A stretch of DNA of 64,000 nucleotides. It comes from Candidatus Micrarchaeia archaeon (GTDB lineage Archaea; Micrarchaeota; Micrarchaeia; Burarchaeales; JACRGF01). The stretch covers positions 575 through 64,574 of the forward strand of contig JAWAFC010000003.1 of assembly GCA_038890815.1 (NCBI GenBank), in the 5' to 3' direction. The notes beneath the pieces are model-generated. The model was given only the letters and a program-made list of their open reading frames with translations. It was not told where the DNA came from and made no database searches. This document shows positions 3,852-28,046 of the stretch, one piece after another; positions within the stretch are counted from its first letter, which is position 1, and every line of letters begins with the position of its first letter. A program made the translations under genes and the position numbers.

Positions 3852-3895
<44 letters not shown>

Positions 3896-8810: not shown

Positions 8811-8831
8811 GATGATGAAAAAACGTCCATG

Positions 8832-8841: not shown

Positions 8842-8860
8842 CCTTTGAAGATGGAATGGC

Positions 8861-11829: not shown

Positions 11830-12803
11830 GGGCTTGGCTCATCGTGCTTGCACTCCTCCTTGCCGGCTGCACAGCCGAGCCACTCGCCGAGCTGCCTGGA
11901 TGCATCGCCCTGAGCGTGCGTGAGGAGCCGGAGCTGTATGGGTTGGTATTCGTGGCGCTGGTGGGCGTGCTGTTTGCCATCGCCATCGGCTACATGGCAG
12001 CCCAGCTTTTCAGGAGGCCTGACTGGGAAGCCATGGTGAGAGTGGAGCTCACCCAGACACTGCTGGGTGCGAGCATGATTTTCATCGCTGTGTGGCTGAG
12101 CGCATTCTCCTGCTCGATAAGCTATGAGCTTGCCGGGGGGGATACATTTGCCAAGGCAAACGCATACCTCGCAGGACTGACTTACGGGGAAATGATTCCG
12201 GCCATCATGAGGCTGTACGACAAGGCATGGCAGGCGGAGAAGCTGACGGCCTGGATCATTGGCATTTCCTCCTGCATGAGCGGCGTGTGTTTCCAGCCCT
12301 ATGCAGGCTACAGCATGGTTAGCTACAACCTCGGAACTGTGGCCGGCCTGCTCGCTCCCATCGTCACTTCGCTCATGGTGCAGATGCTCGCCCTCCAATT
12401 CATACAGCAGTTCGCATTTGTTTATCTGCTTCCGCTCGGCCTGCTGCTCAAGGCCGTGCCCTTCACAAGGGAAGCCGGCGCATTTCTCATCGCGCTCGCC
12501 ATCGGGCTGTATGTGGTCCTCCCGCTCACCTATATTTTCAATGCGAGAGTCATGGCGGACATCGGGCCGAGCATCACTGCGGGGAGCTACTGCGCGCTGA
12601 AGGCCGGGCCGGGTGACAAGCCAGGCGGGCAGGCGCTCGACAGCACGCTGGAGGGCGTTGGTGGGTTGTGCTCCACGGTCATTGCAGTTGTCGGGAAGAT
12701 TCTTCCGCAGGCAGTTTTCCTGCCCGCCCTCAACATAGTCATAACGCTCGCCTTTACAAGGACGATGGCGAGGATATTCACGCGGGATTACATGTTGGGG
12801 TAA
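11826..12803 (+). CDS. Membrane protein, paralog 2 (FtsX/MacB-like topology; novel family)
   Basis: A 325-aa ORF with an ATGA overlap to the upstream gene. Its motifs are IGYMAAQLFRRPDWEAMVRVELTQ and LPLGLLLKAVPFTREAGAFLIALAIGLYVVLP. Confidence 0.75.
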   Translation: MRAWLIVLALLLAGCTAEPLAELPGCIALSVREEPELYGLVFVALVGVLFAIAIGYMAAQLFRRPDWEAMVRVELTQTLLGASMIFIAVWLSAFSCSISYELAGGDTFAKANAYLAGLTYGEMIPAIMRLYDKAWQAEKLTAWIIGISSCMSGVCFQPYAGYSMVSYNLGTVAGLLAPIVTSLMVQMLALQFIQQFAFVYLLPLGLLLKAVPFTREAGAFLIALAIGLYVVLPLTYIFNARVMADIGPSITAGSYCALKAGPGDKPGGQALDSTLEGVGGLCSTVIAVVGKILPQAVFLPALNIVITLAFTRTMARIFTRDYMLG

Positions 12804-12807
12804 TGGC

Positions 12808-14025
12808 ATGCGGAAGATGATACACTTTGTGCTGCTTTGGCTTCTGCTTGCCAACAGCGTGGCTGCCGAACAGCAGTGTGAGGGCACGCGCATGTGCACG
12901 CTGTTCGCCAACTGGGCGCCCATCACTGCCATGGTCATACTCATCTCTCTCTTCGTTGTGTCGCTGGCCTTCATGGTGGGCAAGGGCCTCGGCATGCGGG
13001 ACATTGAGATGTTCGCCAAGGAGGAGCTGTACCAGTGCATTGCCAGCGCACTCATCCTCGGTGTGTTCATCAGTTTTGCGGCGCTCCTTGAGAGCACCTC
13101 GCAGCAGCTGGCCGGTGACATACTGACGGCCGGCACTCAGGGCACGACATTCGGCACACCAATCACAATGCGCTGGGAGTACACGGGCGACAGGAGCATG
13201 CGCTGGAGGACGACGGGCGCGCTCACCATAGAGAGATGCGGAGCTAACGACCCATTTCCCGATAAGAAATGCCACTTTTATTTGGCCAGGGCATTTTTGG
13301 GCAGCACGTTCGAAAAGCTGTCTGGGCAGGCGAGGGAGGTCGTAAAGCTGTATGGGCTCAGCATACTGTTTGACACCACATCCGTAAGCCTGGGGCTGCT
13401 TATCTTCGGACCCGTGTTTGGATTGGGGTTTGGCGTACCCCTTTTCGGTGGCAACAGCCTCCTGTACGAAACGCTCGAAACCATCTTCTCGGTCATGGCG
13501 AAGACGATGCTGCTGCTGAAATTCCAGGAGGTATCGCTCATGTACATCGAGAGGGGAATTTTCCCAGGCCTCATGATTGCCGGCCTCGTCTTCCGCTCCA
13601 TCTGGTTCATGCGGAAGCTCGGTGGGCTGCTGCTCGCGCTCGCCATCGGGCTATACACAATATTGCCGTTCATGTACATACTCAGCTGGTATACGATGGA
13701 TGCCGCACAGGCGAGGTATGATGTGAGCGCGCTGACCACCGCGCTTCAGAATAGGCAGAGCGCAGCGCAGGCCGTGATGGAGGAGCGGGGGCGTGATGTG
13801 GGGATAGGGCTATTTTTCCACCATGAGTACAGTGTGCTATTCACACACTACAGGTCTGATGGCAGCGTTGAGTACTATGGCATGCTCGATCTGGCCGGCA
13901 GGTATGCGCTCATAGCCATGGCAACGCCCACCATCGCGCTGTTCGTGCTGCTTGGTTTCGTGAGAGAACTGTCCGGCTTCCTGGGAGGGGACATTGAGAT
14001 CGCCGGACTGACGAGGATATTGTGA
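12808..14025 (+). CDS. Membrane protein, paralog 3
   Basis: A 405-aa ORF with the motifs LAFMVGKGLGMRDIEMFAKEELYQ and FPGLMIAGLVFRSIWFMRKLGGLLLALAIGLYTILP, and the C-tail GGDIEIAGLTRIL. Confidence 0.75.
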   Translation: MRKMIHFVLLWLLLANSVAAEQQCEGTRMCTLFANWAPITAMVILISLFVVSLAFMVGKGLGMRDIEMFAKEELYQCIASALILGVFISFAALLESTSQQLAGDILTAGTQGTTFGTPITMRWEYTGDRSMRWRTTGALTIERCGANDPFPDKKCHFYLARAFLGSTFEKLSGQAREVVKLYGLSILFDTTSVSLGLLIFGPVFGLGFGVPLFGGNSLLYETLETIFSVMAKTMLLLKFQEVSLMYIERGIFPGLMIAGLVFRSIWFMRKLGGLLLALAIGLYTILPFMYILSWYTMDAAQARYDVSALTTALQNRQSAAQAVMEERGRDVGIGLFFHHEYSVLFTHYRSDGSVEYYGMLDLAGRYALIAMATPTIALFVLLGFVRELSGFLGGDIEIAGLTRIL

Positions 14026-15212
14026 TGGCAACGAGAGCTGTGCTCAGCGTGCTGTTGCTTTTGGCTATGGGAGGGGCTGCCTGGGCGCAGGCAGCATGGG
14101 CTCCTGGCTGGATGAGCGTGGCTTTCCTGGCGCTGTTGGTTTCCTATTTCATGATAGGACTGGCCTTCATGTATGCCATAGGCTTCCAGGACGCCAGGAT
14201 GGAGGCCTGGTGCAGGCACGAGTTTTACCAGAACAGCGCCACGGCTGTTTTGCTGGGCATGCTCGTGGGGGTGAGCGCGCTGCTCGACAACACGCTGTAT
14301 CCGGCGTTCTGGAGCACGTCAATACTCAATCCTGAAAGCCAGAGGGCCAGCGCGAGCGTCTGCCCCAGCTCCACGCTGTCGGTGCCTGGGTTTGGGCTCT
14401 CGGTGACGCTCAACTCGCTGCGGTACAGCCCGCCAAGGGGAGGAAGGGGATTTGGAAACATACAAAATCATGTTGTGGGATATGTGGGGTGCCTTAGAAC
14501 GGCGGTCACAAAATACCTACTCGAGCTAAATCTCGGCGGTGTGTTCTTCGGCTTCATCTCCTCGCTGATGTTCAGTTTCGAGTTTGTGGAAATCAAGTTT
14601 GGCATGCTCAACATAATGCCGGGCGTTGTGATGAAGCCGGTGACGGACATGCTCGGCTACATAAACACGCTCGTGGCCATGCTCTTCCTGCAGCTCAGGG
14701 TGCAGGAGCTTGTGCTGACTTTCGCCCGCGATTATGCATTCTCTTTCCTGCTGCCTCTCGGCGTTGCCCTCAGGGCATTCACTTTCACGCGCGGGGCGGG
14801 TGGGGCGCTCATCGCCATCGCTGTCGGATTCTACATCGTGCTGCCCATCACCTATCTCTTCCAAGAGGAGATAACTGCTGATTACTGCGCGCGCCATGAC
14901 TGCCAGCGCTCGCTGCTCGCCAGATTTGGGTATGCGGGCAATCTGTATGACATCATTGTGGGGCTCATGGCAAGCGCACAAAGCGGCGGCATTGGCAGAG
15001 GGCTCACTGTGGCAGGCTCATTTGGGCAGGGCTACTCGCTGTCCGAGCTGATGTCGCTCAATGGACCTTTCGGGCCCGTGATATTCGTAGCCGGCATATC
15101 GGGGGCCGTGCTGCCCGCGCTCGGGCTCATCACGACATTCATATTTATGAAGTCCTTCGCGAACCTCATGGGAAGTGATGTGGACTTCAGCACGCTGATA
15201 AAAATTGTTTAG
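14022..15212 (+). CDS. Membrane protein, paralog 4
   Basis: A 396-aa ORF with an ATGA overlap. Its motifs are LAFMYAIGFQDARMEAWCRHEFYQ and LPLGVALRAFTFTRGAGGALIAIAVGFYIVLP, and the C-tail is GSDVDFSTLIKIV. Confidence 0.75.
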   Translation: MMATRAVLSVLLLLAMGGAAWAQAAWAPGWMSVAFLALLVSYFMIGLAFMYAIGFQDARMEAWCRHEFYQNSATAVLLGMLVGVSALLDNTLYPAFWSTSILNPESQRASASVCPSSTLSVPGFGLSVTLNSLRYSPPRGGRGFGNIQNHVVGYVGCLRTAVTKYLLELNLGGVFFGFISSLMFSFEFVEIKFGMLNIMPGVVMKPVTDMLGYINTLVAMLFLQLRVQELVLTFARDYAFSFLLPLGVALRAFTFTRGAGGALIAIAVGFYIVLPITYLFQEEITADYCARHDCQRSLLARFGYAGNLYDIIVGLMASAQSGGIGRGLTVAGSFGQGYSLSELMSLNGPFGPVIFVAGISGAVLPALGLITTFIFMKSFANLMGSDVDFSTLIKIV

Positions 15213-15220
15213 GTGGAAAC

Positions 15221-16258
15221 GTGAGCGTGTGTGCTGACCTGGCGAACTGGCCATCCGCCTGGTACACGGTTGCGGCCATCGGCATCGTGGCATCGGGCGC
15301 CGTCATTGGGTTGGTCTACATGATTGGGGTGACGCTCGGCAATCCCGGGCTCACCGCGCGCGCAAAGAACGAGATCTACCAAGTGGTGGCAACGCTGTGC
15401 ATGCTTGCCCTTGCCGTTGGGTTTGTGGGATTCGCCTGCACGGCCGATCTCAGCGGTTTCGGAGTGAGCGGAACGATCTATTCCGCCGCCGAGGCCTACC
15501 TCTCGTGGCTCGCCAGCCGCTCCATGTACGTGCTGGAGAGAATGATGCACCTGGCAGGGACGTGGGGATTTCTGGGCAGCATCGGCATGGGGATCACGAT
15601 AAGCGGCATAGGCTTCTCTTTCAACCCTTTCTCGGGCCTTTTTGGGCTTGTCAACATACTCAACATATTCATGTCGACAGCGCTCATCCTGTCGCTCACA
15701 ACGGCCGCGCAGTATGTGGTGTTCAAGTTCGCGCTTGAGGGCTTTCTGGGCTACCTCCTGCCTGTTGGTCTGGTGTGCAGGTGCTTCCCATTCACCCGCG
15801 ACTTCGGGGGCGCGCTGATTGCGCTCAGCGTAGGCTTCTCGCTGTTCTATCCATTCCTGTTCGCAGTGGACTGGGCGCTGGTGGGGCAGCCAACCAAGAG
15901 TACAATTGGAGGAGGGGGAGGAGATTTTGACAGGTGGGCGGTGGTGGATACGCTTGTGGGGTGGTATGTCTCCTTTGTAGTCGAGACTGTTGGTATCGTT
16001 ACCTTCTTTGCCGTCGTTGGAGTTCCGCTCATAATCCCGCCCATCCCGATTGTGAGCATACTGAAAATGCTCATGGAAATCTCCATCATGTTCCTTGATT
16101 CGATGATGCAGAGCGCGCTTATGCCGATAGGCGAAATACTTGTGGGCGGGCTTTTCCTGCCCGCGCTGAACGGCATCATACTTGTGGCTGTGGTGAGAGA
16201 TCTGTCGCGCGTGCTCGGCGAGGAGGTTGACATAACGACGCTGACGAGGATGGTTTGA
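15221..16258 (+). CDS. Membrane protein, paralog 5
   Basis: A 345-aa ORF with the motifs LVYMIGVTLGNPGLTARAKNEIYQ and LPVGLVCRCFPFTRDFGGALIALSVGFSLFYP, and the C-tail GEEVDITTLTRMV. Confidence 0.75.
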   Translation: MSVCADLANWPSAWYTVAAIGIVASGAVIGLVYMIGVTLGNPGLTARAKNEIYQVVATLCMLALAVGFVGFACTADLSGFGVSGTIYSAAEAYLSWLASRSMYVLERMMHLAGTWGFLGSIGMGITISGIGFSFNPFSGLFGLVNILNIFMSTALILSLTTAAQYVVFKFALEGFLGYLLPVGLVCRCFPFTRDFGGALIALSVGFSLFYPFLFAVDWALVGQPTKSTIGGGGGDFDRWAVVDTLVGWYVSFVVETVGIVTFFAVVGVPLIIPPIPIVSILKMLMEISIMFLDSMMQSALMPIGEILVGGLFLPALNGIILVAVVRDLSRVLGEEVDITTLTRMV

Positions 16259-17304
16259 TGACGTGGGAGACGAGCGCTGCTGATGTATACAAGACTTTCG
16301 GGGGCTATGGCTGGCTGGAAGTGGCCATGCTCGCCCTGCTCACCGCATTCCTGTCTGTCGCGCTCGCCTACATGCTCGCCATAGGGTTCAACCTGCCGAA
16401 CCTGAGGAGGTGGGCGAAAGCGGAATTTTATCAGGCTGCCGCGAGCGCCATGCTGGTGGCCCTCGTGTTCACGTTTGTTGAGGGAACAGATCTCCTGACT
16501 GGGGAAAGCCTGAAGTACTCGGCCGGCATCCAGCTGCTCCAGAAAAACACCGAGCTGTTTGCTGGCGACATCGTGGCGCCCGGCCAGAGGGGAAGGGTGA
16601 GGCCATTCAATGTTGTTTATGCACACGTGACCAACATGATAAACTGCGCCAGAGAAAAATACCTCAATGCCCTTGGCGAAACACAATGGCGGGAGTGGCT
16701 GACGCAGATTGTGATCACCCTGTCGATATATAAGATCGATTTGGTGATTCCGTTCCAGCTTCTCCTCTGGCCCCTCTACACGAACATCGTTGAGAACCAT
16801 GTCCTCGCCAACAGCCTTGTGTGGACGCTCATGGCCCTCTACTTCCAGCAGTCCTTCCTGCAGTGGGTTGAGACCTCGATGCTGACTGTGTTCTTCCCGC
16901 TCGGCATCATTTTGAGAATACTGCCCATCACGAGGGGAGCCGGAGCCGTGCTCATCGCCATCTCGCTGGGGCTCTACATCGTCTACCCGCTGCTGTTCAT
17001 ACTCATCGCCACAGCAGTGACTCCACCGAGCGGCTGCGCAAGGACCGAGATAACTCTCGAGCAGCCGCCCGAGATATGCGTCAGCGACCCATCGTCTTTC
17101 GTGCAGTTCCTAAAGGCAGCCGCACAGAGCAGAGGCACGCTCTACAGCGGGCAGGAGGCAAGCATGATGGCCCAGCTCACCATGTACGCCTTTTTCTATC
17201 CCCTCGTGATGATACTCATTGTGGTCATCTTTGTCAGGACGGCCTCCTCATTCCTCGGCGCAGAGATCACTGAGGTCGGGAGGGGGCTCTTCAGGCTGAT
17301 TTGA
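16255..17304 (+). CDS. Membrane protein, paralog 6
   Basis: A 349-aa ORF with an ATGA overlap. Its motifs are LAYMLAIGFNLPNLRRWAKAEFYQ and FPLGIILRILPITRGAGAVLIAISLGLYIVYP, and the C-tail is GAEITEVGRGLFRLI. Confidence 0.75.
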   Translation: MMTWETSAADVYKTFGGYGWLEVAMLALLTAFLSVALAYMLAIGFNLPNLRRWAKAEFYQAAASAMLVALVFTFVEGTDLLTGESLKYSAGIQLLQKNTELFAGDIVAPGQRGRVRPFNVVYAHVTNMINCAREKYLNALGETQWREWLTQIVITLSIYKIDLVIPFQLLLWPLYTNIVENHVLANSLVWTLMALYFQQSFLQWVETSMLTVFFPLGIILRILPITRGAGAVLIAISLGLYIVYPLLFILIATAVTPPSGCARTEITLEQPPEICVSDPSSFVQFLKAAAQSRGTLYSGQEASMMAQLTMYAFFYPLVMILIVVIFVRTASSFLGAEITEVGRGLFRLI

Positions 17305-17951
17305 TGCGCGCGTTCATCAAAAGAAACTTTCGGGCAGCGCTGGCGGCTGCGGCGTTCACTCTCGCCATACTGCTGGCCGCGCTTGCCTTTGTTGCCACAC
17401 CTCCACCATCCCAGCCTCCCCTCCCAGCGCAGGCTGAAGAAGTCCAGCCATCGGTGTGGGAGCCATTCCTGCCGCAGAACTGTAGCCCTTTCTTTGCCCC
17501 GACGACTGCCTCGTATGTCTATGCGGTGCGGTTCTCTGCTGGGGGCACTGACATAACAGGGCAGGTAAGCCATGAGCTCATATCGAGCAATGACTCATAC
17601 ACCATGAGGGATGTGCTGACAACGCCATTCGGAAAGTCTGCAATAGTTTGGGAGCTTGCGCCTGACCTGAGCTGCCGCCGGGTGCGCGCGAGCGCGGAGA
17701 TGAGCGGCATGCAGAGGGTGGACCGAGAGCTTCCGTGCGTGCCGCCCATTCCGTTTTTTGGGGCACCCTGCAGGGAGGAGATGGTGCTGAAGGGACTTAC
17801 AAACGCCAGCACGCCTTTCGGCACGATACCGGCAAAGGTTTATCATGCTACATCATCCAATGCTACATACATTGTGGCGAACAACATCGATGTGCCTCTC
17901 AAATTCGCCATTGGCAACATGCAGGGGGAGCTGATAAGATATGAAGAGTAG
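17301..17951 (+). CDS. Small N-terminally anchored or secreted protein of the same operon
   Basis: A 216-aa ORF with an ATGA overlap upstream and an 11-nt overlap with the downstream giant gene. It has a hydrophobic N-terminus followed by a Pro-rich linker. Confidence 0.55.
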   Translation: MMRAFIKRNFRAALAAAAFTLAILLAALAFVATPPPSQPPLPAQAEEVQPSVWEPFLPQNCSPFFAPTTASYVYAVRFSAGGTDITGQVSHELISSNDSYTMRDVLTTPFGKSAIVWELAPDLSCRRVRASAEMSGMQRVDRELPCVPPIPFFGAPCREEMVLKGLTNASTPFGTIPAKVYHATSSNATYIVANNIDVPLKFAIGNMQGELIRYEE

Positions 17952-20900
17952 AGTGCTCCTGCCGCTGCTTTTGGCGGCTGTGGTGCTGTCGAGCTGCGTG
18001 CTCAAGATAACCCCCAGGGTATCGCTGCCGACCTTCTCGCCCTCGCTAGGAGTGGCCGAGGCGCCATCAACCTGCAAAGAGCCGCCTTGCTACTGCATGG
18101 TGGAGGAGCAGCGCTATCGCTACAAGACATGGAGCTGCACGGGCAGTGCGGCCTCTGTGTGCGGCGAATTTGCCGGCGCAGCGGCCTGTTTCTTCAACTC
18201 AAGCGAGGGGGACTGGTGTGAGTATGTCGGAGGGGGAAGCGGCGGGCAGGGTAATTATCTGTGCTTTCAGTGGAATGGCTGCTATGACCCGGGAGGCTAC
18301 TATGTGCATGTCAAATGCAACTGCTGGTTCCAGGATGACATCGAGGTAGATTTCCTAGGTACAAAGAAGCCGGAGGATTTCAAATGCGGCTGCTTCATCT
18401 GTCCGGGCTGCCCGAGCACAAAGCTGAAATGCTGCGATCCGGAGTGCGCCACGCTCAACCTCACCTATGCCAAGCTTGCTGACGGCAGCGATGACACGGC
18501 CAGGCCGACCGGCATACAGAGGGATGCCGCAACAAACGCCCCACTGATAACGCGCAGGAAATGTGGGGAGGTGAGGCCGAGCATTCCTGGGCTGGGGAGC
18601 GGGCCTGCCATGGAAACGGCCTTTGCGCCCGGGCCGGCTGGATGTAGGGTGAACTGCACTTACGGCGACACAGCAAACTACTATTGCTATAAGAAAACGG
18701 CCAACGAGTTCAGCATCCACAGGAACTGCAAGACAGCATGGCTCTCCACGCTGCAGGGCGGAAGGCTGCTCACTGTCATTCCGTGCGATGCGCAGGAGAT
18801 GGCGCGCATCGTGAATTCGCCAACAAAAAAGCTCGTGCTTTTCAAAATAGGGCAGGGCCAGAGCCTCCAGGACTTCGAGTTTGCTAAGCAGCAGTGCCGG
18901 CTCGTCCCGCCCGATGTGCACAGGGTCACCATGGGCAAGCTCACTTTTGAGCCGACAGAGGCGAGCGTGCCGAGCTATGTGCGCTTCTGTTTCGAGAACA
19001 AAGACATCAAGCCACACAGCGTTTGCCAGAGCCAGGCAGGAGCGTGCATGCCCAATGGCCTCGCCTTTGACATCAAGCCCGAGGCCAGCGCCTGCATTGA
19101 GAGCGATGGCCTGGAGAGGCTTGGGGAGGGCAGCCACACCTTCATGGATGGCTTTTCAAAAGAGGAGTTCGTGCTCACGATAAAAAAGGCCGAGGCAGTC
19201 TTCGCCCTGCGCGATGCCATAAGCCCGCCCTATCTCGTGGGCTTTGAGAATGTTGGCGTGCGCTTTGAAAGCTATGCTGACATCGATAGGGAGATTCGGC
19301 CCATCGGCTTCTTTGACAGCATGCCGCCATTCAGTGTGCCGGCTAGGGGCCAGACAACCATGCAATTCAGGCCAGGGGTGTGGATGCTGAACGATACGGC
19401 GACCGGCACGCTCGCCACGCTGTTCGTGCTGAGCGAGACAAGAGATGTGAGGATTGGCGATGACATGGGGCCGGAGCGCATCGCCATACTCAGCGGCAGT
19501 GAGGTTTGCTTCAACAACACGCGCGGGGAACCCGTAGAGCTCGAAATATACGAGCGCTATGTGGGCGGCTTTTCGTACATCATGAACAAGAGCGTCGTGC
19601 CCGGAGGAAAGTGCTGTTGGACTCCGGAGCCTGGCAAGTATTTCGTCAATGCCAGCGGGGTTGGGGGAAACACGACGATATTTGTGGGAGAGGAGGCAGG
19701 GGCTGTGTTTGTCAGGATAAACAATCCAGAGTACTCGCCGCCTGAGCTGCTAACAAAGGTCGGCATGCGGGTGTGCTTTGTCAATCCATCAACAAAGGAA
19801 AGGACTGTGAGCGGTGGCGGCGCGTCGCTGGCCATACCGGCAAAATCGTTTGATTGCTCGTGCGTGCGCGTGCCGTGCCTCGTTGTTGAATCTGAAGGCA
19901 CGAACACATACGAGGACAGCGTCACCAAGGCCGTGTTCAAGGTCAGCGCGACGAGGAAGGAGAACAAGTTCATGAACATCACCGCTTACGGCATTTTCCC
20001 GCAGGGCGTGCTGTTCGATGGGCCCGGCAGCGTCTGCTTTGCCAACAAGGACAATGTCGAGCATGAGGTGAAGCTTGCCGAGAAATATCTCCATGTCGGT
20101 GGTGCTGTCAGACGATTGGCGGGCACGGAGAGCGTTAGGGTGGCAGCAGGCGACATCGGCTGCATCGAGCTGCCCGATGCCAATGGCTCTTTTGTGTTCA
20201 CCACATCCGGCAGGGCCGGCGAGCTAGTTGGGGTTGCTGTGAGAAACGATGCCCCGCCGAAAGCCGATCTGGCCGATCCAGTGGCGCGCAAGGCGGCTGA
20301 GGGCGTGGCGCGCATATACTTCACGCGGGCTGGGCCATTCCCGCGCGTACAGAGGGTGGGGAGCTTTGGCGACATCGAGCTGTGGAACGCCGACAACAAG
20401 CCGCACACTGTGACTGTGAACACTCAGACGCCATGCGACCAGCCTGATGCCTCGGGGGTAACGCACAGGCTGTGCCCCACCGTGAGCCTGAAAACATGCG
20501 ATGGGGGCGGGTGTGGGGGAGTCATCTGGCAGAGCAGGATGAAGTTCAAGCCCACAGACCCTCCGGCCATCGAGATACCCCCAAAGACCTACACATTCAC
20601 GGACGCTGGGAATAAGGCGAGCGTTGAGGTCATCAGCAAGGGCTTTGAGGTCGAGCTGGAGGCCATGGGCATTCCCACGCCATCCATTGCATCGCCACAG
20701 ACGATGGGCGGGAACCTGAACCTCATAAACCTGTTCAGGAGCGGGCCCATGCCTAAGACAACGCTGATGGCGCTCAGGGGATACATCCACCAGAACATCA
20801 TACCGGTCATCACGACATCGTTCGGCGGGCCGGGGCAGAGGGTTGTTGAGGAGATAGTCAAAACAGAGAGCGTGGAGACTTTGGAGTCTACGGCCGGCAG

Positions 20901-23900
20901 CAATCTCATCATCTACAACGGCGACAGGGTGGCGCACAAGGTCGCATTCGGTGCGCTGTTATATGATTATCCGGCATTGCTGGATTGGTTTGGGGACAAG
21001 GAGCTGCCGCCATGCGGCAACTGCGATGTTACAGACCCGACCAGCGATTGTGCAAAGAGATGCGCCATTTATTTCAATGAGAGCGGCACTTGGTGGGCGA
21101 GCGATGATGAAACAGCAGGGAAGGTGGAAAACGATCCTCCTGCAGTGCGCCCAATGCCGGCTGGCATATTTGTCGTGATCGACATCGGGTATGGCCAGAA
21201 CATTGAGGAATACAATGAATATGTGGCTTGCGGCGAGGATGCGGGCTGCAGAGTCAGCAAAGGGATTGCGCTATTCTGGAGAGTGCTTTATGGAGAGCCG
21301 ATTCCAGCAAAAGTTTACGGGATTTTTGTTGCGAGCGGGGAGAAAGAGCTTGAGGTTTCGCTGGACAGAACAAAAGAAACTGGATGGGGATGTGCTGGCT
21401 ATTGCCAGTTTGATGAGAGATGCCTCGACACAAACTCGGAGTATTACAAGCTCTTCAAGGATTTCTGCGATGCTCCGGCCGAGATAAAGGATCAGGGCGG
21501 AAACATAATATGGAGTGGCAGCAAAAGAGATTGTTATAATCGGTGCAAAAACAGCATCAGCAGCAGTGCCGTTGATCTGAGACTCAAAAACAGCGAGTCC
21601 GACAACTCGGCCCGCGTCTGCTTCAGGAATGATGGCTGGAAGACGAGGCACCTGCGCGTGCTCGACTGGCTTGTTGCAAAAGATGATGGAGGCTCCGTGA
21701 GCCTGCCTTATCATGGAACTAACCAGCATCCGATAAACGAGAGCTACACTGTGTTTAAGGAAAGTGGCGGCACATATTCAAAGGCATTTGATATAATTCT
21801 CGCAACGGACATCCCCGAGCCTGAGGTGATCATCGGCGATGAGAGGGAGTTCGCCACGCGCAATTACGCCGATTCGCTACGCTTTGTTTCGCCGACACAG
21901 ATAAAATTCAGCATCAAGACGAGCGACAAGAGGGAGCTGTTCTACAGGGAAAAGGCTGACGGGGAGTGGAAGCCCTTCCTGCTTGTGAACGGCGTGGATG
22001 ATGGCAGGGGATGGAAGGCGATTGCAAGCAATGGCCAGACGCTCTATTTCCCAACAGATTTCAGCGGCTTTGGCCAGGATTGGCATGGCCAGATAGACAT
22101 TCTGGACAACGGCACAATTCTCCCTGGATGCACTTTGATACCGATGCCATTTGGTTGTGCCGGCCCCGGTATTGTTGTGGATGCCTCCTATGATGCGAGC
22201 GACGATTCCTTCTCTGGTTTCTCGGGTTGTGATGTGAGCCGGTATGAAAAAACCGTGAAGGGGGATGTCGTCTATGACTCTACCAACATGTACCAGAAGT
22301 GCCTTTCTGACGCTCGCGCGGAATGCGATGCGCAGGCTAAGAAATACGCTGATGAGATGTGCAGGCAGGACCCGGCTACCACGCCGTGCAAAAACAATGG
22401 ACCATGCCAGGCCAACCCAGACCCAAATGTGGGTGGAGACTGCTGCGCTGACTCCGACTGCTCCTGCCCGAGAAGCTGTGAACAGGGAGCTGGTTGCGAG
22501 CCTGACTATAGCTGCATCGACGAATGCAATGTCAAGTGGCAGAACTACATTGCCTGCATCTCGCCTTCTGGCGACTACTACAGCTCAAACTACGGTGCAT
22601 GCTATGCTGAGAAAAGCGCCGAGTGCGAGGCCAATTGGAGGAAGGACGTGACGCTCACCTATAAGAACGTCACCTGCAGCGGCCTGGCGACTACGGACGT
22701 GCCCTATGAGCACATCATCTACACGCCGCCAAACAGAGTGGTGTGGTGGTACAAGTTGGAAAATGGCCGGCTCGAAGAGCTGTTTAACTTCGGCTTGTCG
22801 GACAGCTTTGTTAATGGAGTCAACTCCTACTTTTATGTAGTCAGCAACGATAGCATGCTCGTTGGCTCGAGCGATGAGAGCATCATCCCAGTGCCAAAAA
22901 ACAACAAAATCACCTTCCAGTACGTTTTCACTTACAGATATCAGCTCACAAAGGGCAGCAACAAAATCATCAGGCTTGAATATGGCCTGCCTGTCGATGT
23001 CAAAAATGCCAGGCTGAACGTTATGCTTCCTGTCGACTCGCCCGTGTTCAGCTGGAAAGGGGATGCTATGATAAACCAGACCTATGATGATGATAAGATC
23101 AGGAACATCCCGCCGGGCGAGATGGGGTGCTTTGAGGCGCCTTTCCCAAGCTGGCCAACAAACAAGGGCTATGATCAGCTCGATGGCTATGTGATTTATG
23201 ATGCTGACGAGCTGGAGGACTACACGCGGTTGAAAAATAAGAATTTCTATAAAGAAGTCGGCCAGAGCTGGAGCAATGATAATGATAGGCTGTTCAACCA
23301 CGTGTGGGCTTACCAGTTCTTCGGAAGCAGTGCAGTGCCAAACAACCTCTATCCAGAGGCAACGAGGTTTGTCGAGCTTGCCGACTTTGACTGGGGGACA
23401 AGGCTGGGTGCTGTGGCGACATCGCCCGGAGGCTCGGTGACGCTCAAGAACAAAGCCGAAAGCGATGCGGTTGGCATAACGAACCACATAACCTATGAGG
23501 TGAGCAACGGCCTGTACCAGCATGTGTGTCCGGGTTATAAATGCCCTGATGGAGTTGATGGCAAGATCGTCCCGCCCATAAAACCGGATAAACCGAGCGA
23601 GAGGTATTCAGAAGATGATTGCAAGGGCGAAAACCCGCGTGCAGGGTGCCGGTACTTCTTCAGGGTTGATGGAGGTGGTGCCCTCACGCTTGCCGGGCTG
23701 GAGCCGGGCAGCTACAAAATAACTGAGAGCGTCAGCGACAAATCCATAGTCATAAACTCAAAGAGGACAGACATCGTGCTGCCGCTTATCTATGAAAGCT
23801 GGGACCCGACATTCTCCACCGTGATGAGCGGCAGTGAGATTTGCGTGAGGAACACCGATGAAAAGCCCAGGACTGTGACGCTGAAGGGTGGGTGTGGATG

Positions 23901-24978
23901 GGTTGAGAAGTGCATAATATGCATTGGACAGATGTGTTTTGGCTGTTATAACAGTTGGGAATGTAGCAGCAATATGGGAAGCAAAGAGATGCGGAATGGT
24001 GAGCTGTGGTGTCCTGTGGCGAGCGCAAACCAGAACTATGCATTTGTCGATGAGCTGACAGGCGCCATACTGCCCGTTGAGGTCAAGAGCGCATGCGATG
24101 GCAGTGAGCTGGAGCCGATTGCCAAGAGGCTTGTCAGCTACGATCCGCCGGAGAGCGTTTGGAGGCTGCCCGAGTTTGACAGGTACAGCGACTACAACCC
24201 GCACGGGCCTGCCGTGCCATCGATCGTCACCGCGCCTGTCGGGCTGCCAAACGAGGGGTGGGCAAAGGACTGCATAGCCAACGCGCTCAGGAATATCAAA
24301 GAGAAATGCCCCAACTGTACGAGCGTGTTGCCCGTGCCAAACGACATCCCGCTCGATGAGCAGAAGGCATTCATCAACTTCTACAGGAACGATGCGGACA
24401 GGTGGAAGTACGTTGATCTCGTGGGGCAGTTCGCCTTCCTCGGCGAGAGAGGGGTGTGCAACGCCACCCAGCTGATGCGGGACAAAATCAACATCTCGCA
24501 GTATGCTGTGTGGTCGCCCCCGGGCACGCAGGGCGCTCGGTCGAGGCTCAGCATACTGCTCGGCTATGGCATTCCGGATGCGTCCGTGAGCGCGTGGGGG
24601 GGCAGCGGGTGCTTTAGCGGCATGGGGCAGAGCGAGGCGAGGAAGGAGGCAGCGCTCGCCTTCAAAGAGGTGTTTGAGGTGCTGCTGCCCGAGATGATTG
24701 GCAGTGGGATGGTGGGCATGTCGATGCACTGCCTGACCGATGGCAGCTGCCTGCCATGGGCGCAGAGCGGGGGCAAGGCGCTCCCGCTTGGGCTCTATGA
24801 TTCCAGTGGGGAGAAGGACCCGGCGGCCCAGATGTGGTGGAAGAAATGCGGTAGCTACTTCTATGCTGGCGAGGGCCTACTGCCAGTGCTGGGAGCAGCT
24901 GAGGAAACAAACGCGAGCACATGCGACCCCTCGAGGCTGTGGGCAGCTTATCAGCAATATAAATGTGGCGTTGTATAA
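17941..24978 (+). CDS. Giant secreted cysteine-rich protein (2345 aa), probably a multi-domain beta-rich surface or adhesin-like protein
   Basis: A single uninterrupted 7-kb ORF with signal peptide MKSRVLLPLLLAAVVLSSC. Cys clusters run throughout (CYCMVEE, CNCWF, CGCFICPGCPSTKLKCCDPEC, CCADSDCSCPRSCEQGAGCEPDYSCIDEC) and there are many NxS/T sequons. There is no C-terminal TM segment. Confidence 0.8.
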   Translation: MKSRVLLPLLLAAVVLSSCVLKITPRVSLPTFSPSLGVAEAPSTCKEPPCYCMVEEQRYRYKTWSCTGSAASVCGEFAGAAACFFNSSEGDWCEYVGGGSGGQGNYLCFQWNGCYDPGGYYVHVKCNCWFQDDIEVDFLGTKKPEDFKCGCFICPGCPSTKLKCCDPECATLNLTYAKLADGSDDTARPTGIQRDAATNAPLITRRKCGEVRPSIPGLGSGPAMETAFAPGPAGCRVNCTYGDTANYYCYKKTANEFSIHRNCKTAWLSTLQGGRLLTVIPCDAQEMARIVNSPTKKLVLFKIGQGQSLQDFEFAKQQCRLVPPDVHRVTMGKLTFEPTEASVPSYVRFCFENKDIKPHSVCQSQAGACMPNGLAFDIKPEASACIESDGLERLGEGSHTFMDGFSKEEFVLTIKKAEAVFALRDAISPPYLVGFENVGVRFESYADIDREIRPIGFFDSMPPFSVPARGQTTMQFRPGVWMLNDTATGTLATLFVLSETRDVRIGDDMGPERIAILSGSEVCFNNTRGEPVELEIYERYVGGFSYIMNKSVVPGGKCCWTPEPGKYFVNASGVGGNTTIFVGEEAGAVFVRINNPEYSPPELLTKVGMRVCFVNPSTKERTVSGGGASLAIPAKSFDCSCVRVPCLVVESEGTNTYEDSVTKAVFKVSATRKENKFMNITAYGIFPQGVLFDGPGSVCFANKDNVEHEVKLAEKYLHVGGAVRRLAGTESVRVAAGDIGCIELPDANGSFVFTTSGRAGELVGVAVRNDAPPKADLADPVARKAAEGVARIYFTRAGPFPRVQRVGSFGDIELWNADNKPHTVTVNTQTPCDQPDASGVTHRLCPTVSLKTCDGGGCGGVIWQSRMKFKPTDPPAIEIPPKTYTFTDAGNKASVEVISKGFEVELEAMGIPTPSIASPQTMGGNLNLINLFRSGPMPKTTLMALRGYIHQNIIPVITTSFGGPGQRVVEEIVKTESVETLESTAGSNLIIYNGDRVAHKVAFGALLYDYPALLDWFGDKELPPCGNCDVTDPTSDCAKRCAIYFNESGTWWASDDETAGKVENDPPAVRPMPAGIFVVIDIGYGQNIEEYNEYVACGEDAGCRVSKGIALFWRVLYGEPIPAKVYGIFVASGEKELEVSLDRTKETGWGCAGYCQFDERCLDTNSEYYKLFKDFCDAPAEIKDQGGNIIWSGSKRDCYNRCKNSISSSAVDLRLKNSESDNSARVCFRNDGWKTRHLRVLDWLVAKDDGGSVSLPYHGTNQHPINESYTVFKESGGTYSKAFDIILATDIPEPEVIIGDEREFATRNYADSLRFVSPTQIKFSIKTSDKRELFYREKADGEWKPFLLVNGVDDGRGWKAIASNGQTLYFPTDFSGFGQDWHGQIDILDNGTILPGCTLIPMPFGCAGPGIVVDASYDASDDSFSGFSGCDVSRYEKTVKGDVVYDSTNMYQKCLSDARAECDAQAKKYADEMCRQDPATTPCKNNGPCQANPDPNVGGDCCADSDCSCPRSCEQGAGCEPDYSCIDECNVKWQNYIACISPSGDYYSSNYGACYAEKSAECEANWRKDVTLTYKNVTCSGLATTDVPYEHIIYTPPNRVVWWYKLENGRLEELFNFGLSDSFVNGVNSYFYVVSNDSMLVGSSDESIIPVPKNNKITFQYVFTYRYQLTKGSNKIIRLEYGLPVDVKNARLNVMLPVDSPVFSWKGDAMINQTYDDDKIRNIPPGEMGCFEAPFPSWPTNKGYDQLDGYVIYDADELEDYTRLKNKNFYKEVGQSWSNDNDRLFNHVWAYQFFGSSAVPNNLYPEATRFVELADFDWGTRLGAVATSPGGSVTLKNKAESDAVGITNHITYEVSNGLYQHVCPGYKCPDGVDGKIVPPIKPDKPSERYSEDDCKGENPRAGCRYFFRVDGGGALTLAGLEPGSYKITESVSDKSIVINSKRTDIVLPLIYESWDPTFSTVMSGSEICVRNTDEKPRTVTLKGGCGWVEKCIICIGQMCFGCYNSWECSSNMGSKEMRNGELWCPVASANQNYAFVDELTGAILPVEVKSACDGSELEPIAKRLVSYDPPESVWRLPEFDRYSDYNPHGPAVPSIVTAPVGLPNEGWAKDCIANALRNIKEKCPNCTSVLPVPNDIPLDEQKAFINFYRNDADRWKYVDLVGQFAFLGERGVCNATQLMRDKINISQYAVWSPPGTQGARSRLSILLGYGIPDASVSAWGGSGCFSGMGQSEARKEAALAFKEVFEVLLPEMIGSGMVGMSMHCLTDGSCLPWAQSGGKALPLGLYDSSGEKDPAAQMWWKKCGSYFYAGEGLLPVLGAAEETNASTCDPSRLWAAYQQYKCGVV

Positions 24979-24985: not shown

Positions 24986-25231
24986 ATGGCTCAGGTCGCT
25001 GCGGTCGTGAGGATTTTCCCGCAGGATGCGGAGAGGGTCGAGGAGCTGAGGCAGAGAGTGGAGAGCGAGCTGCGCCCGAGCAGGATCGAGATCGAAGACA
25101 TAGGCTTTGGCGTGAAGGCGCTGCGGATCACGCTCATCCTCAGCGATGAGACGGGCGGCGATGTAGAGGAAAGGGTGAGGAGGATACCTGGCGTCAGCGA
25201 GGTGAGTGTGGAGAGCGTGGGGAGGCTTTAG
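24986..25231 (+). CDS. Translation elongation factor aEF-1 beta
   Basis: The sequence MAQVAAVVRIFPQDAERVEEL...IGFGVKALRITLILSDETGG...IPGVSEVSVESVGRL matches the conserved aEF1B layout. The longer track ORF starting at 24740 is an upstream extension that overlaps ORF-J. Confidence 0.75.
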   Translation: MAQVAAVVRIFPQDAERVEELRQRVESELRPSRIEIEDIGFGVKALRITLILSDETGGDVEERVRRIPGVSEVSVESVGRL

Positions 25232-25709
25232 TCATCTCCCTGAGCATCGCCATTATCCTCTCAACCCCGCGCGTGATTTTTTTCCAATGGCTTCCCTCCC
25301 AGTAGATCTGGCCACATCCATCGCAAAGCCAGAAGGTGGCATGCCGGGCTGTGAGGTCAGCGTGCACCCTCCCCTGCACTGCCTCGCGCCCCACGGTGCG
25401 CAGCCTGCCATTGCACTTTGGGCACAGCGTGCGCGAGGGAAAGTCCTCAATCGGTATTTCAAAATCGTGCGCGAGCTTGGCGAGCGCCTGCTCTGTGCTC
25501 AGCCCGCGCGGCACGAGGTAGGCGCGCACGCGATGCCGTCTCGCCCTGGCGGCGAGCTCAACATCCTGGGTGAGCAGCACTGCCCCCTTTTCCTTCGCCA
25601 GCGCCAGCAGGGCGTCGTCGCTGGCATCGGTGGGGTACAGCGTCTCGATGCCGAGGATGCGCAGCCAGCGGGCGAGCTTTTTCAGCATGACATCGGCGAC
25701 AAATATCAT
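25194..25709 (-). CDS. Mut7-C / DUF82 PIN-like RNase domain protein with a C-terminal zinc ribbon
   Basis: The N-terminus MIFVADVMLKKLARWLRILG is the canonical Mut7-C opening. The C-terminus carries CPKCNG...CDGCGQIYWEGSHW. Confidence 0.6.
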   Translation of the reverse strand: MIFVADVMLKKLARWLRILGIETLYPTDASDDALLALAKEKGAVLLTQDVELAARARRHRVRAYLVPRGLSTEQALAKLAHDFEIPIEDFPSRTLCPKCNGRLRTVGREAVQGRVHADLTARHATFWLCDGCGQIYWEGSHWKKITRGVERIMAMLREMTKASPRSPHSPR

Positions 25710-25745
25710 GAGATTAAAATGTTATCTGCTATTTTAAAGCACGGG

Positions 25746-28046
25746 GTCGCATTGATTCGTCGCATTCGGTTGGAAAATTGGAGAAGCCATCGCGCCACTG
25801 AGCTCACCTTCTCGAAAGGCACCAACCTGCTCGTTGGGCCCATGGGCGCGGGCAAGACGAGCGTTGTGGAGGCGGTGTGCTTCGCGCTGTATGGAACTTT
25901 TCCGGCGCTGCGGAGAAAGGAGGTTGAGCTGGATGCCGTGATAACGAGGGGGGAGAAAAGCGCGGCCGTTGAGCTCGAGTTCGAGCTGGATGGCCGGAGC
26001 TATAGCGTGCGGCGGGAGTTCGGGCGGGAGAGCAAAGCCAGGCTGGAGATCGATGGCAGGCTCGTGATCGAACAGCCGAAAAGGGTCACGGAGGAGCTGG
26101 AGAGGGCGCTCAGAGCTGACTACGAGGTTTTCGCGCGCGCCATATATGCCGAGCAGAACGGCATTGACGAGCTGCTGAGGCTCAGCCCAAAGGAAAGGAA
26201 AAAGAGGGTGGATGAGATACTGGGCATTCTGTTTTTTGAAAGGGCTGGTGATGGGGCAGGCCAGGTGGCTCGCAAAATCAAAGAGAGAAGCGAGGAGCTC
26301 GCAGCGCGGCTGGCCGAGTTGAAAGCCGAGGAGCTCGAGGTTGAGGTGGACGCGCTCAAGCGCGAGCTGGCCGAGGCAAAGGAGGAGGAAAAAAGGCTCG
26401 ACGAAGAGCTGCGCAGGCTTGGGGATGTCGCCGAAGCCAAGCAAGCGAGGGTGCGCGAGCTGGAGAGGAAGGAGAAGGAAGTGCGCGAGCTGCGCGAGGA
26501 GCTCGAAAGAAAGCGTGGCGAGCTGCTGGGCATGAAAGTGGAAAGGCCGGTGAGCGAGGACGAGCTCGCGCGCCTGGAGAGGGAGCTCAAAGAGGTCACC
26601 GCAAAGCTGAGGAATGCCGCAGAGCGGAGGAGGAGGGCTGAGGCCGACAAGAACGCAGCATCGCGCGCGCTCTGGGAAGTTGAGCGGCGGTACGAGGAGC
26701 TGACCGCACAGCTGAACAGGAAAAGGGAGCTGGAGAAGAAAAAGGGCGCGCTGGGCGTGACATATGCTGTGGCGCTCTCGGAGATTAAGGGTGCGCGGGA
26801 CAGGATAGAAAAGAGCCGCGCATGGCTTGCCATGCAGAGCAGTGTGCTGTCAGACCTGCGAGGCATCATGGCCGAGCTGGCCAGGCAGGGCACGACGTGC
26901 CCGGTGTGTGGCGGCCCGCTCACTGAGGAGAAGAGGCAGCACCTGCTCGAGGAGAAGAAAAAGCTGAAAGAGCATATCGAGGAGACGGTGGCGCAGAAGG
27001 AGGAGGAAATTAAGTTGCAGGAGAGAGAATTGGAAAACCTCGAGAAAAACGCGCGCATCCTTCAAGAGATTGAGGCTGAACTCTCACGTCTTGCCGTGAC
27101 ACAGGAGGAAGTTGAGAAAGTTGAGAAGGCGAAAGATGAGGCCCAAAGGGCGGAGCGCGAGGCTGCCGCGATGGCCGAGCAGGCTGAGGCGGAGGAAAAC
27201 GAGCTGCGGCATAGCCAGATACGGCTCAGCCAGGCAGTGATGGAGGCCAAGAAGGCGCTGAATGAGAGGGCGCGCGCCGAGAGGCTGAGGAAAGAAGTGA
27301 GCGAGCTTGAGGCGGAACTGGCTGAGAAGGCGTTCGATGAGAGGGAGCTCAAAGAGGCGAGGGAAGATGCCCAGCGGGTAATGCTTGCGATGGTAGAGTT
27401 AAAAGAGAAGATTTCCGGCAAGAGGAGCGTTGAGGAGGAGAAAGAGAAAAGGCTTGAGCTACTCCAGGGGAGGATCGCCGAGGCGCAAGAGCTCAGGAGG
27501 GAGGCCGAAATGGCTGCGAGAGCCGCAGAGCGAGTGGCCGCATGGGAGAATGCGCTGCGCGCAACACAGGCAGCACTGAGGGAGGTCTACATCGCAGAGA
27601 TAAATGGCGCGCTGGGGCTCATATGGCGCCAAATCTATCCCCATGCTGACTTCACTGAGGCGAGGATGAGAGTGGGTGAGGAGGACTACTCGCTCGAGTT
27701 AAAAGCTGGCAGCGAGTGGATTCCCGTGGAGGGGAGGGTGAGCGGAGGGGAGAGGGCCTGCGCCGCGCTCGCGCTGCGCATAGCGTTCGCCACCGTGCTC
27801 GTGCCCAATCTGTCCTGGCTTTTCCTTGATGAGCCCACGCACAACTTGGACGCTGAGGGTGTGGCCGCGCTGGCAAGGGCACTGCGTGAGGAGATACCGA
27901 AAGCGAAGGTGGAGCAGATCATCGTCATCACACACGATGAGAGACTGAGGGCGGCTGCCAGCGGGCAACTTTATGTGCTGTCGCGCGATAAGGCCACGGG
28001 GGGTGCGAGTGTGGCGGAGGCCGCGCGCGAGCTCGCGCTCATCTAG
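25746..28046 (+). CDS. rad50: Rad50/SbcC-family DNA repair ATPase (probable GTG or TTG start; the track ORF from 25206 is an artefactual N-terminal extension)
   Basis: It opens IRRIRLENWRSH with Walker A GPMGAGKTS. It has long coiled coils, a central zinc hook CPVCGGPL, the signature SGGERACAALALRIAF, Walker B LFLDEPTHNLD and an H-loop ITHDE. Confidence 0.8.
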   Translation, partial: VALIRRIRLENWRSHRATELTFSKGTNLLVGPMGAGKTSVVEAVCFALYGTFPALRRKEVELDAVITRGEKSAAVELEFELDGRSYSVRREFGRESKARLEIDGRLVIEQPKRVTEELERALRADYEVFARAIYAEQNGIDELLRLSPKERKKRVDEILGILFFERAGDGAGQVARKIKERSEELAARLAELKAEELEVEVDALKRELAEAKEEEKRLDEELRRLGDVAEAKQARVRELERKEKEVRELREELERKRGELLGMKVERPVSEDELARLERELKEVTAKLRNAAERRRRAEADKNAASRALWEVERRYEELTAQLNRKRELEKKKGALGVTYAVALSEIKGARDRIEKSRAWLAMQSSVLSDLRGIMAELARQGTTCPVCGGPLTEEKRQHLLEEKKKLKEHIEETVAQKEEEIKLQERELENLEKNARILQEIEAELSRLAVTQEEVEKVEKAKDEAQRAEREAAAMAEQAEAEENELRHSQIRLSQAVMEAKKALNERARAERLRKEVSELEAELAEKAFDERELKEAREDAQRVMLAMVELKEKISGKRSVEEEKEKRLELLQGRIAEAQELRREAEMAARAAERVAAWENALRATQAALREVYIAEINGALGLIWRQIYPHADFTEARMRVGEEDYSLELKAGSEWIPVEGRVSGGERACAALALRIAFATVLVPNLSWLFLDEPTHNLDAEGVAALARALREEIPKAKVEQIIVITHDERLRAAASGQLYVLSRDKATGGASVAEAARELALI

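Follow-up and report, generated by a model that had tools for sequence, protein, structure and literature searches.

What kind of protein is encoded by a 7-kb open reading frame (ORF) in the genome of a Candidatus Micrarchaeia archaeon, and how is it held at the cell surface? The ORF, here called gene J, occupies positions 17941-24978 of the plus strand in the 64,000-nucleotide stretch of DNA that we analysed (the window; contig JAWAFC010000003.1, positions 575 to 64,574). An earlier note, made from the letters of the window, had described it as single and uninterrupted. ORF listing and translation agree with this, giving 2345 codons with no stop or frameshift. The 2345-aa precursor is identical to MEM4389380.1, the 'hypothetical protein QXG98_01840' encoded on a contig of 128.6 kb in the Candidatus Micrarchaeia archaeon metagenome-assembled genome (MAG), which belongs to the DPANN archaea. 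We consider it an even bet that J is the large extracellular subunit of a Micrarchaeota-specific envelope complex, namely a lipid-anchored, disulfide-stabilised ectodomain that probably serves host contact.

Since the window has a G+C content of 58%, many long spurious antisense ORFs occur in it, and since the source is a MAG, J might be taken for an assembly chimera, a fusion or a chance ORF. A 7-kb ORF, however, far exceeds chance, and J has relatives. A word-indexed search among 5.8 billion protein clusters returned a sole one, P0002 (3195 aa), from a locus designated L001 (positions 10001-19588). P0002 is collinear with J from the N- to the C-terminus, with 26-28% identity over the N-terminal ~550 and the C-terminal ~420 residues. 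An ortholog in locus L007 (JGI 3300010938), with 57-62% identity across aa 17-1184 before its contig breaks off, came from looking up the contigs of membrane-protein matches. Its gene calls are split (575 + 645 aa) by a 10-N scaffold gap at 17669-17678 with gggaag duplicated on both flanks, so that a real frameshift is ruled out and the sole 'frameshift' among the relatives is a gap. In the alignment of J and P0002, Cys is the best-conserved residue: 60 of the 100 are retained, compared with 29% of the other residues (binomial p = 1.6e-10). Within aa 1-1184 of J, 32 of 53 Cys are kept in all three proteins. Because its Cys residues are conserved far above background and relatives exist, J is a genuine gene under selection in which the Cys residues matter. 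The chimera or chance-ORF explanation is essentially refuted already, and its remaining probability is negligible.

No further J relatives were found in two scans of public genome contigs, two scans of metagenome contigs or a phage tblastn search, and repeating the word-indexed search with the J/P0002 alignment returned none beyond these two proteins. Relatives of J were sought by word-indexed searches and contig scans; the exhaustive hidden Markov model (HMM) search mentioned below covered the membrane paralogs and not J. Within this scope the J family appears to have three known members, J, P0002 and the L007 ortholog.

The mature protein has a calculated mass of ~255 kDa and a pI of 5.0. 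It contains 100 Cys (4.26%), 38 Met and 21 His. A Kyte-Doolittle scan identified the N-terminal segment MKSRVLLPLLLAAVVLSSC, the expected signal peptide, as the sole hydrophobic segment, with none past residue 27. The C-terminus (...AAYQQYKCGVV) has neither a transmembrane (TM) segment nor a PGF-CTERM or PEF-CTERM motif, as had been noted before, and the features of archaeosortase substrates (C-terminal PGF/PEF motif, TM helix and basic tail) are absent from J. The Cys-rich strings singled out in the earlier note are present, with CYCMVEE at C50-C52, CNCWF at C126-C128, CGCFICPGCPSTKLKCCDPEC at C149-C169 and the 'knot' CCADSDCSCPRSCEQGAGCEPDYSCIDEC at aa 1501-1529 (22441-22527). Its impression of Cys recurring along the whole length is not borne out. 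The residues are clustered, and the blocks 401-500, 901-1000 and 1601-1700 contain none. Likewise, the many N-glycosylation sequons amount to a mild excess, with 20 N-x-S/T sites observed and 13.1 ± 3.3 expected from shuffled sequences (p ~0.03).

The earlier note regarded J as devoid of a membrane anchor. This overlooks a conserved lipobox. The signal peptide (aa 1-19, 17941-17997, +) ends in V-V-L-S-S-C19, which fits the lipobox pattern [LVI][ASTVI][GAS]C. The corresponding residues are L-A-G-C in P0002 and, as a near match, L-S-N-C in the L007 ortholog. The Cys19-type residue is invariant in the three proteins and is followed by the conserved stretch x-x-[KQ]-[IV]-TPR. Among the ORFs of at least 80 aa in the window, lipobox-type N-termini occur three times, in genes B, D and J, all inside the gene cluster described below. 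A lipid anchor at Cys19 is likely and, as we infer, the most economical reading of the J N-terminus. With such an anchor, retention of J at the surface need not depend only on partner proteins.

As a whole protein J gave no match to Pfam (E ≤ 1), NCBIfam (E ≤ 0.1), PHROGs or the chains in the PDB. A motif that recurs in J is, however, recognisable by eye: G-x-x-V-C-F-x-N-x-D-x-x-x-H-x-V, followed ~35-45 residues on by C-x...P-G-x-Y-x-F. Units of ~85-95 aa were cut from J, P0002 and the L007 ortholog, and 14 of them were aligned, yielding the consensus V....fxPxxl......VCFxNxDxxxHxV....C.....G.Y.F.D.....V.V. The profile of this alignment gave 25 matches among all PDB sequences at E ≤ 10, and 24 of these are cupredoxins (23 plastocyanins and one copper nitrite reductase). 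The best match is a plastocyanin with E = 0.0058, covering positions 11-79 of 91. An hhalign comparison of the modules with poplar plastocyanin gave a probability of 65% over the first 37 columns. When single modules were compared with Pfam, two matched Cupredoxin_1 (best E 0.0081) and one the sulfocyanin SoxE, all below threshold, and no other Pfam family recurred; the L007 ortholog also matches Cupredoxin_1 weakly. The similarity to cupredoxins (plastocyanin, SoxE, Cupredoxin_1 PF13473) runs from the first strand up to and including 'G-x-Y-x-F' and takes in 'F-x-P-x-x-l-x-v-x-x-G-x-x-V-x-F-x-N-x-x-x-x-P-H-N-V' together with the first ligand His. With moderate confidence, we assign aa 325-766 of J (18913-20238, +) as five tandem cupredoxin-like beta-sandwich modules.

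These matches to plastocyanins, copper nitrite reductase, Cupredoxin_1 and sulfocyanin, and a first copper-ligand His position that is kept in most modules, might indicate an extracellular multi-copper or electron-transfer protein made of cupredoxin domains. The remaining ligands, however, are lost. The pattern C-x(1-4)-H-x(1-8)-M of the Cys-His-Met ligand loop does not occur in any module or anywhere else in J, which has 21 His in total, and the position of the ligand Cys is filled by Asn, Ala or Ser. Without this loop the modules are not expected to bind type-1 copper. In most modules one Cys is located in the 'VCF' strand and a second one in the strand preceding 'PGxY'. This placement suggests an intradomain disulfide, a Cys pair that is not found in cupredoxins, and the modules of J would be structural units arranged in tandem. 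Hence a copper protein was rejected as very improbable.

A sixth, degenerate module containing GDIELWNADNKPHTVTV is probably present at aa 787-900 (20299-20640, +); this tentative assignment is based on a motif scan and a weak match to the module HMM. Further candidates around aa 985, 1222 and 1825 were recognised by motif alone. Another module of the same cupredoxin-like type lies close to the C-terminus (aa 1940-2050, 23758-24090, +). It is interrupted by CGWVEKCIICIGQMCFGCYNSWEC, a hydrophobic insertion of 24 aa with seven Cys at aa 1985-2008 (23893-23964), which is absent from P0002 and could accommodate a metal cluster, form a disulfide knot or act as a loop that interacts with the membrane. 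As a side observation, P0002 carries several Asp/Cys-rich motifs (C-x-D-G-x-D-D-D-G-D-G-x-x-D-C-x-D-x-x-C) between its modules at aa ~680-950. They are absent in J and have no Pfam match at E ≤ 1.

The modules are embedded in regions of different character. The N-terminal Cys-rich region (aa 20-324, 17998-18912, +) has ~25 Cys and the conserved motifs CxCMVEExRYRYxxWxC and TLQGGRxxxVxPCDAQxM...FKIGQG. Residues 900-1200 form a mixed region. A Cys-dense hub with 24 Cys (aa 1397-1579, 22129-22677, +) includes the 'knot' and is partly conserved in P0002, and aa 1580-1940 are Cys-poor and beta-looking. The best-conserved domain is the C-terminal one (aa 2051-2345, 24091-24975, +), which has no TM segment and contains the motifs YNxHGPAxPxIxT, IKExCxNCT, SMHCxxDGxCxP and ASTCDPxRxxAxYxQYKC. 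Profile searches of the PDB with aa 20-260, 253-325, 900-1205, 1580-1940 and the C-terminal domain gave no match. Structure prediction on two halves of J, with P0002 as the sole extra row of the alignment, gave no usable fold. AlphaFold2 models of aa 1-1200 and aa 1146-2345 had mean pLDDT values of 29.1 and 25.9, respectively, and were discarded for this reason. The top PDB match of the first model in Foldseek, a laccase, was likewise rejected (probability 0.18, TM-score ≤ 0.1, rmsd ~20 Å).

J is the last of ten genes (A-J) that belong together. It is preceded by six membrane paralogs, all on the plus strand: C (10057-11829), which starts with a Cys-rich N-terminal ectodomain of ~220 aa, D (11826-12803), with a lipobox N-terminus (LLLAG-C), E (12808-14025), F (14022-15212), G (15221-16258) and H (16255-17304). 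They were assigned by paralog alignment and by orthologs. In an alignment of the six sequences the paralogs show 23-27% identity to C. Gene I (17301-17951, +) encodes a single-pass protein of 216 aa with a TM segment at aa 9-37 and a small ectodomain, and its last 11 nt are shared with the start of J. Upstream of the paralogs, gene B (8861-10078, +) encodes a 405-aa protein with a lipobox (LLLAG-C), 27 Cys, 11 sequons and about seven repeats of ~35 aa, each with a Cys pair (R-[DE]-x-C ... C). A run of N-I-T, N-V-T and N-L-T sequons lies at its N-terminus, and the protein has no database match. Adjacent genes from B to J either overlap or lie no more than 8 nt apart, and thus form one operon.

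Gene A (5154-8810, -) is divergent and was identified as an ORF and by a TM scan. The 1218-aa product begins with a signal peptide and a Cys-rich ectodomain (25 Cys, repeated CPxG...C...CC), followed by a TM segment at aa ~263-291 and a tail of ~880 aa, which is predicted to be cytoplasmic and coiled-coil-like. It has no Pfam match, and the Pfam, NCBIfam and PHROGs scans across A-J gave nothing meaningful. The spacer between A and B comprises 50 bp (8811-8860) and contains a single near-palindromic TTTATAAATA box (8832-8841), located ~25-27 nt from the starts of both A (8810, -) and B (8861). Probably the two genes share this box as an archaeal TATA element that acts in both directions, and its position suggests that the predicted transcripts of A and B are leaderless in both directions.

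The end of the cluster is marked by the gene for aEF-1beta (24986-25231, +; Pfam EF1_GNE), which is not part of the system. Its ATG lies 7 nt past the stop codon of J on the same strand, and a TATAAA sequence is located ~28 nt upstream of it, within the 3' end of J (24958-24963). Presumably, aEF-1beta is expressed as a separate, leaderless transcript from this promoter inside J. The claim that J ends the operon therefore needs some refinement. With a TATAAA of its own in front of aEF-1beta and a convergent Mut7-C gene behind it (25194-25709, -), J is the last cluster-specific gene, although a same-strand gene follows almost immediately. Both neighbours are also present in L001.

The cluster order is conserved between genomes at protein identities of 28-43%. 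In both L001 and L007 six membrane paralogs and a single-pass protein precede the giant gene. C-H have one best ortholog apiece, all different and arranged in the same way, with 33-43% identity in L001 and 63-70% in L007; for C these are l779 in L001 (36%) and a protein with 64-70% identity in L007. The ortholog of I in L007 shows 39% identity, and a 225-aa gene occupies the same position in L001. For B a 41% identical ortholog exists in L007, and L001 lacks B as a separate gene. The L007 ortholog of A is 36% identical and in the same position, weaker matches were found in loci L006, L004 and L005, and L001 has a 973-aa minus-strand gene at the position of A. Close packing and synteny with one-to-one orthologs thus tie J functionally to the membrane proteins, in line with the earlier note; given the likely lipid anchor, these proteins need not be the sole means of retaining J at the surface. 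On the whole, the earlier observation on J was largely right and its link to the membrane proteins is well supported by synteny, while its reading of J as unanchored is probably wrong.

More distant loci differ at the position of J. Locus L004, on a contig of a distant Micrarchaeota member with 40% G+C, has a divergent gene of 1262 aa followed by six paralogs, of which the second, fourth, fifth and sixth best match D, F, G and H. The terminal protein, at the position of J, has 1272 aa, 45 Cys and a less canonical N-terminus (A-F-G-C). No homology to J was detected by HMM, and the short collinear similarities between the two proteins are not significant (z 2.0 and 3.6, reached by 8 of 200 and 2 of 200 shuffles, respectively). 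Therefore, it was dropped as a J homolog and is considered a positional analog only. In locus L002 the array is present, and no J-like gene was found in the 3.3 kb downstream of it. The absence of a J-like gene in L002 and the different protein in L004 mark the membrane array as the conserved core; the large lipoprotein with its many Cys is a terminal component that varies.

An exhaustive HMM search with the six paralogs among 1.84 billion cluster representatives showed the size of the membrane family: 3003 proteins match at E ≤ 1e-3, and 2291 of them also pass E ≤ 1e-10. Where an organism name is attached, as it is for ten members, it is always Candidatus Micrarchaeota. No Pfam domain was found for the membrane part. 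Profiles of 6 and 73 sequences gave no match in the PDB, the latter even at E ≤ 10, and literature searches yielded no description of this cluster or family. The family signature is LPxG(I/V)xLRxFxxTRxxGGxLIAxAIGLYxVYPL with two near-invariant Arg, and the C-terminal tail reads LGG-(D/E)-x-(D/E)-I-x-x-L-x-R-I. Invariant Cys, His, Ser or Asp residues that would suggest catalysis were not found. The signal peptides or ectodomains before the first TM segment and the Cys pairs in variable loops point to proteins with seven TM segments, the N-terminus outside and the C-terminus inside. Some members have N-terminal Ig-like ectodomains of the Big_13 or Big_7 type, which fits a platform for surface display. 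Undescribed so far, this family may outrank J in importance.

A type IV secretion system of Rickettsiales offers an analogy for this arrangement. There, tandem VirB6 paralogs carry giant extensions, so that a reduced, host-dependent organism likewise has an array of polytopic paralogs and very large hydrophilic polypeptides. The resemblance to VirB6/TrbL is one of analogy only, since C-H have no Pfam or PDB match and the cluster contains no ATPase of the VirB4 or VirD4 type; the HerA gene nearby belongs to the Rad50/NurA repair genes.

If J is the extracellular subunit of such an envelope complex, it would be exported by Sec and carry a lipid at Cys19 that tethers it to the outside of the membrane. 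Disulfides between its Cys residues, one in each module and dense clusters at the N-terminus and in aa 1397-1579, would stiffen a beta-sandwich stalk. An assembly of the six paralogs in fixed stoichiometry would offer docking sites, with its Cys-rich ectodomains and loops binding the conserved domains at the two ends of J. Through the conserved C-terminal tails of the paralogs and through protein A, this assembly would be connected to a cytoplasmic coiled coil. At ~4 nm per module, five or six modules would measure approximately as much as the pseudoperiplasm, for which 20-25 nm were reported in Ca. Micrarchaeum harzensis (bioRxiv 10.1101/2021.04.28.441871), and the rest of J could extend as far as the S-layer or past it. 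J would then most likely serve an obligate episymbiont in contacting or recognising the surface of its host cell. DPANN archaea and other reduced symbionts repeatedly have large surface proteins, which are presumed to act in host interaction (PMC5498576; bioRxiv 10.1101/2025.05.02.651781). Considering these precedents, the obligate episymbiosis and the fact that J is the fast-changing part of the cluster, we favour host contact over a purely structural role.

Several points weigh against this proposal. The scores of the cupredoxin assignment are marginal (E 0.006, hhalign 65% over 37 columns, Pfam matches below threshold) and the AlphaFold2 models are unusable, so that fold and function of J are inferred. 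The lipobox of the L007 ortholog is non-canonical, and a physical interaction between J and the paralogs is suggested by gene order only. Because J is far rarer than the array, it may belong to the replaceable accessories and not to the core subunits. Finally, nothing ties the cluster specifically to host contact.

A protein of this kind could instead be purely structural. J is large, beta-rich, acidic and stabilised by Cys, it would be located close to the membrane, and the length of the module row is comparable to the width of the pseudoperiplasm. In addition, the cluster does not lie in an island but in a conserved housekeeping neighbourhood (rRNA operon, aEF-1beta, Rad50). J might thus be an S-layer stalk, a spacer or an anchor scaffold without any role in host contact, functionally similar to SlaB, the S-layer anchoring scaffold of Sulfolobales. 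We consider such a wall or pseudoperiplasm protein rather unlikely, yet it is the alternative to be taken most seriously. The J family has three members, whereas S-layers are reported to be general in Micrarchaeota; J has no S_layer_N (PF05123) or other S-layer domain; known S-layer proteins are almost free of Cys; and the different protein at the J position in distant Micrarchaeota fits a fast-evolving interface better than a scaffold. An enzymatic function seems improbable. J could be a surface-tethered enzyme, e.g. a hydrolase of glycans or other polymers, with a core formed by aa 262-325, 915-965 and 2050-2345 and with the modules as binding units or spacers. DPANN archaea must scavenge from their hosts, and the best-conserved stretches of J (LLTVIPCDAQEMARIV...LVLFKIGQG, LRGYIHQNIIPVITTSFGG and LSILLGYG...GMVGMSMHC) look like strand-helix-strand elements, of which similar short stretches occur collinearly in the positional analog of L004. 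The latter similarities are not significant, however, no hydrolase was matched in Pfam, NCBIfam or the PDB even at E ≤ 1-10, and no recognisable catalytic motif was found. The earlier description of J as an exported, Cys-rich protein is supported, and J looks non-enzymatic.

Compared with known surface proteins, J is a new family with a new type of module and dedicated membrane partners, within the loose kind of giant surface proteins of host-dependent, genome-reduced archaea. Ca. Mancarchaeum acidiphilum Mia14 has four such proteins (MIA14_0152, MIA14_0331, MIA14_0793 and MIA14_0946) with PKD, beta-propeller (Kelch/YVTN) and CARDB domains, and they are described as acquired laterally and lying in islands (PMC5498576). 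Like J they are very large, secreted, built from modules of the beta-sandwich type and found in a reduced Micrarchaeon, where they take up a disproportionate share of the genome and presumably act in cell-cell interaction. In contrast, J is Cys-rich, has cupredoxin-like modules and no Pfam domain, and lies in a core neighbourhood behind a dedicated membrane array. SPEARE proteins, reportedly described by Hamm et al. in 2019, are said to combine serine protease, adhesion and restriction-endonuclease domains. In Nanohaloarchaeota they exceed 5000 aa (bioRxiv 10.1101/2025.05.02.651781). They too are giant surface proteins of a DPANN ectosymbiont and thought to act in host interaction, but J has no protease, adhesion or endonuclease domain of Pfam, and the search among 5.8 billion protein clusters gave no sequence relation.

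The S-layer protein of Ca. Micrarchaeum harzensis, SLP_Mh (Micr_00292), has a mass of 101 kDa, contains PF05123 and almost no sulfur amino acids, is very abundant and is encoded by practically every Micrarchaeota genome (bioRxiv 10.1101/2021.04.28.441871). For this protein a domain similar to copper-binding proteins was suggested by HHpred, as stated in a figure legend of the same preprint. SLP_Mh and J are both exported envelope proteins of Micrarchaeota with N-glycosylation sequons, but J has 255 kDa, 4.3% Cys and three known family members. S-layer domains (PF05123, TIGR01567 and related ones) were not found in J, neither in Pfam at E ≤ 1 nor in NCBIfam at E ≤ 0.1. With 100 Cys and 38 Met, compared with almost none in SLP_Mh, J was rejected as the Micrarchaeota S-layer protein. 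Homology to this known type of Micrarchaeota S-layer protein, which would have spoken against the earlier description of J, was not found.

The remainder of the window contains housekeeping genes, among them those for aEF-1beta, Mut7-C, Rad50, HerA, NurA, SRP54 and a class V FBPase as well as an rRNA operon. The earlier note had also assumed a hot environment. Rules of thumb for the ranges of thermophiles are said to go back to Zeldovich et al. 2007 (IVYWREL) and Farias and Bonato 2003 ((E+K)/(Q+H)). The values for 11 housekeeping proteins (IVYWREL 0.454, (E+K)/(Q+H) 3.65) weakly agree with that assumption, whereas the G+C content of the 16S rRNA is only 0.58. The archaeal rRNA operon occupies positions 1-4849 (-), with the large subunit gene at 1-2326, cut by the window edge, and the small subunit gene at 2714-4849. 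The latter comprises 2136 nt compared with 1478 nt in the model and therefore carries ~650 nt of insertions; two of them measure 40 and 53 nt, and further 3' there is at least one that is larger. ORFs at 518-1195, 1586-2314 and 3132-3671 lie inside the rRNA genes, have no Pfam match and are either spurious or intron-encoded. A run of eight T is found past the stop codon of aEF-1beta (25279-25286). The Rad50 ORF (25206-28046) is over-extended at its 5' end; Pfam and L001 alignments begin at residue ~184, which places the true start at ~25752, and the over-extended part overlaps the Mut7-C gene. Pfam gave no match at E ≤ 1e-4 for two further sizeable ORFs on the minus strand, 49733-52090 (785 aa) and 42261-43367 (368 aa).

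A more far-reaching interpretation concerns the whole cluster. A-J could encode an undescribed trans-envelope machine restricted to Micrarchaeota, i.e. a port or receptor on the symbiont side for host docking and uptake, which we regard as a doubtful possibility. It would be composed of a hetero-oligomer, possibly a ring, of the six 7-TM paralogs with the coiled-coil protein inside and the disulfide-locked, lipid-anchored J outside, and the hydrophobic loop with seven Cys (aa 1985-2008) could interact with the membrane. In the one Micrarchaeon-host pair studied by cryo-electron tomography (cryo-ET), the intercellular nanotubes were host-derived and the molecular partners unidentified on both sides (PMC11329633), which leaves a slot for a port on the side of the symbiont.

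DPANN archaea such as Micrarchaeota live attached to hosts, and the molecules that mediate contact are largely unknown. The locus is a testable candidate, combining a giant surface protein without recognisable family with an unannotated membrane family of ~3000 representatives that always occurs as six paralogs in a set order and has no solved relative. If the fold of the modules holds, and whatever the function of J, a copper-free, cupredoxin-like tandem with a Cys pair would be a new structural use of this fold in an archaeal surface protein. If the cluster indeed encodes an apparatus for contact or uptake, the exchange between DPANN archaea and their hosts would become addressable in cultured Micrarchaeota by proteomics, cryo-ET and structure prediction.

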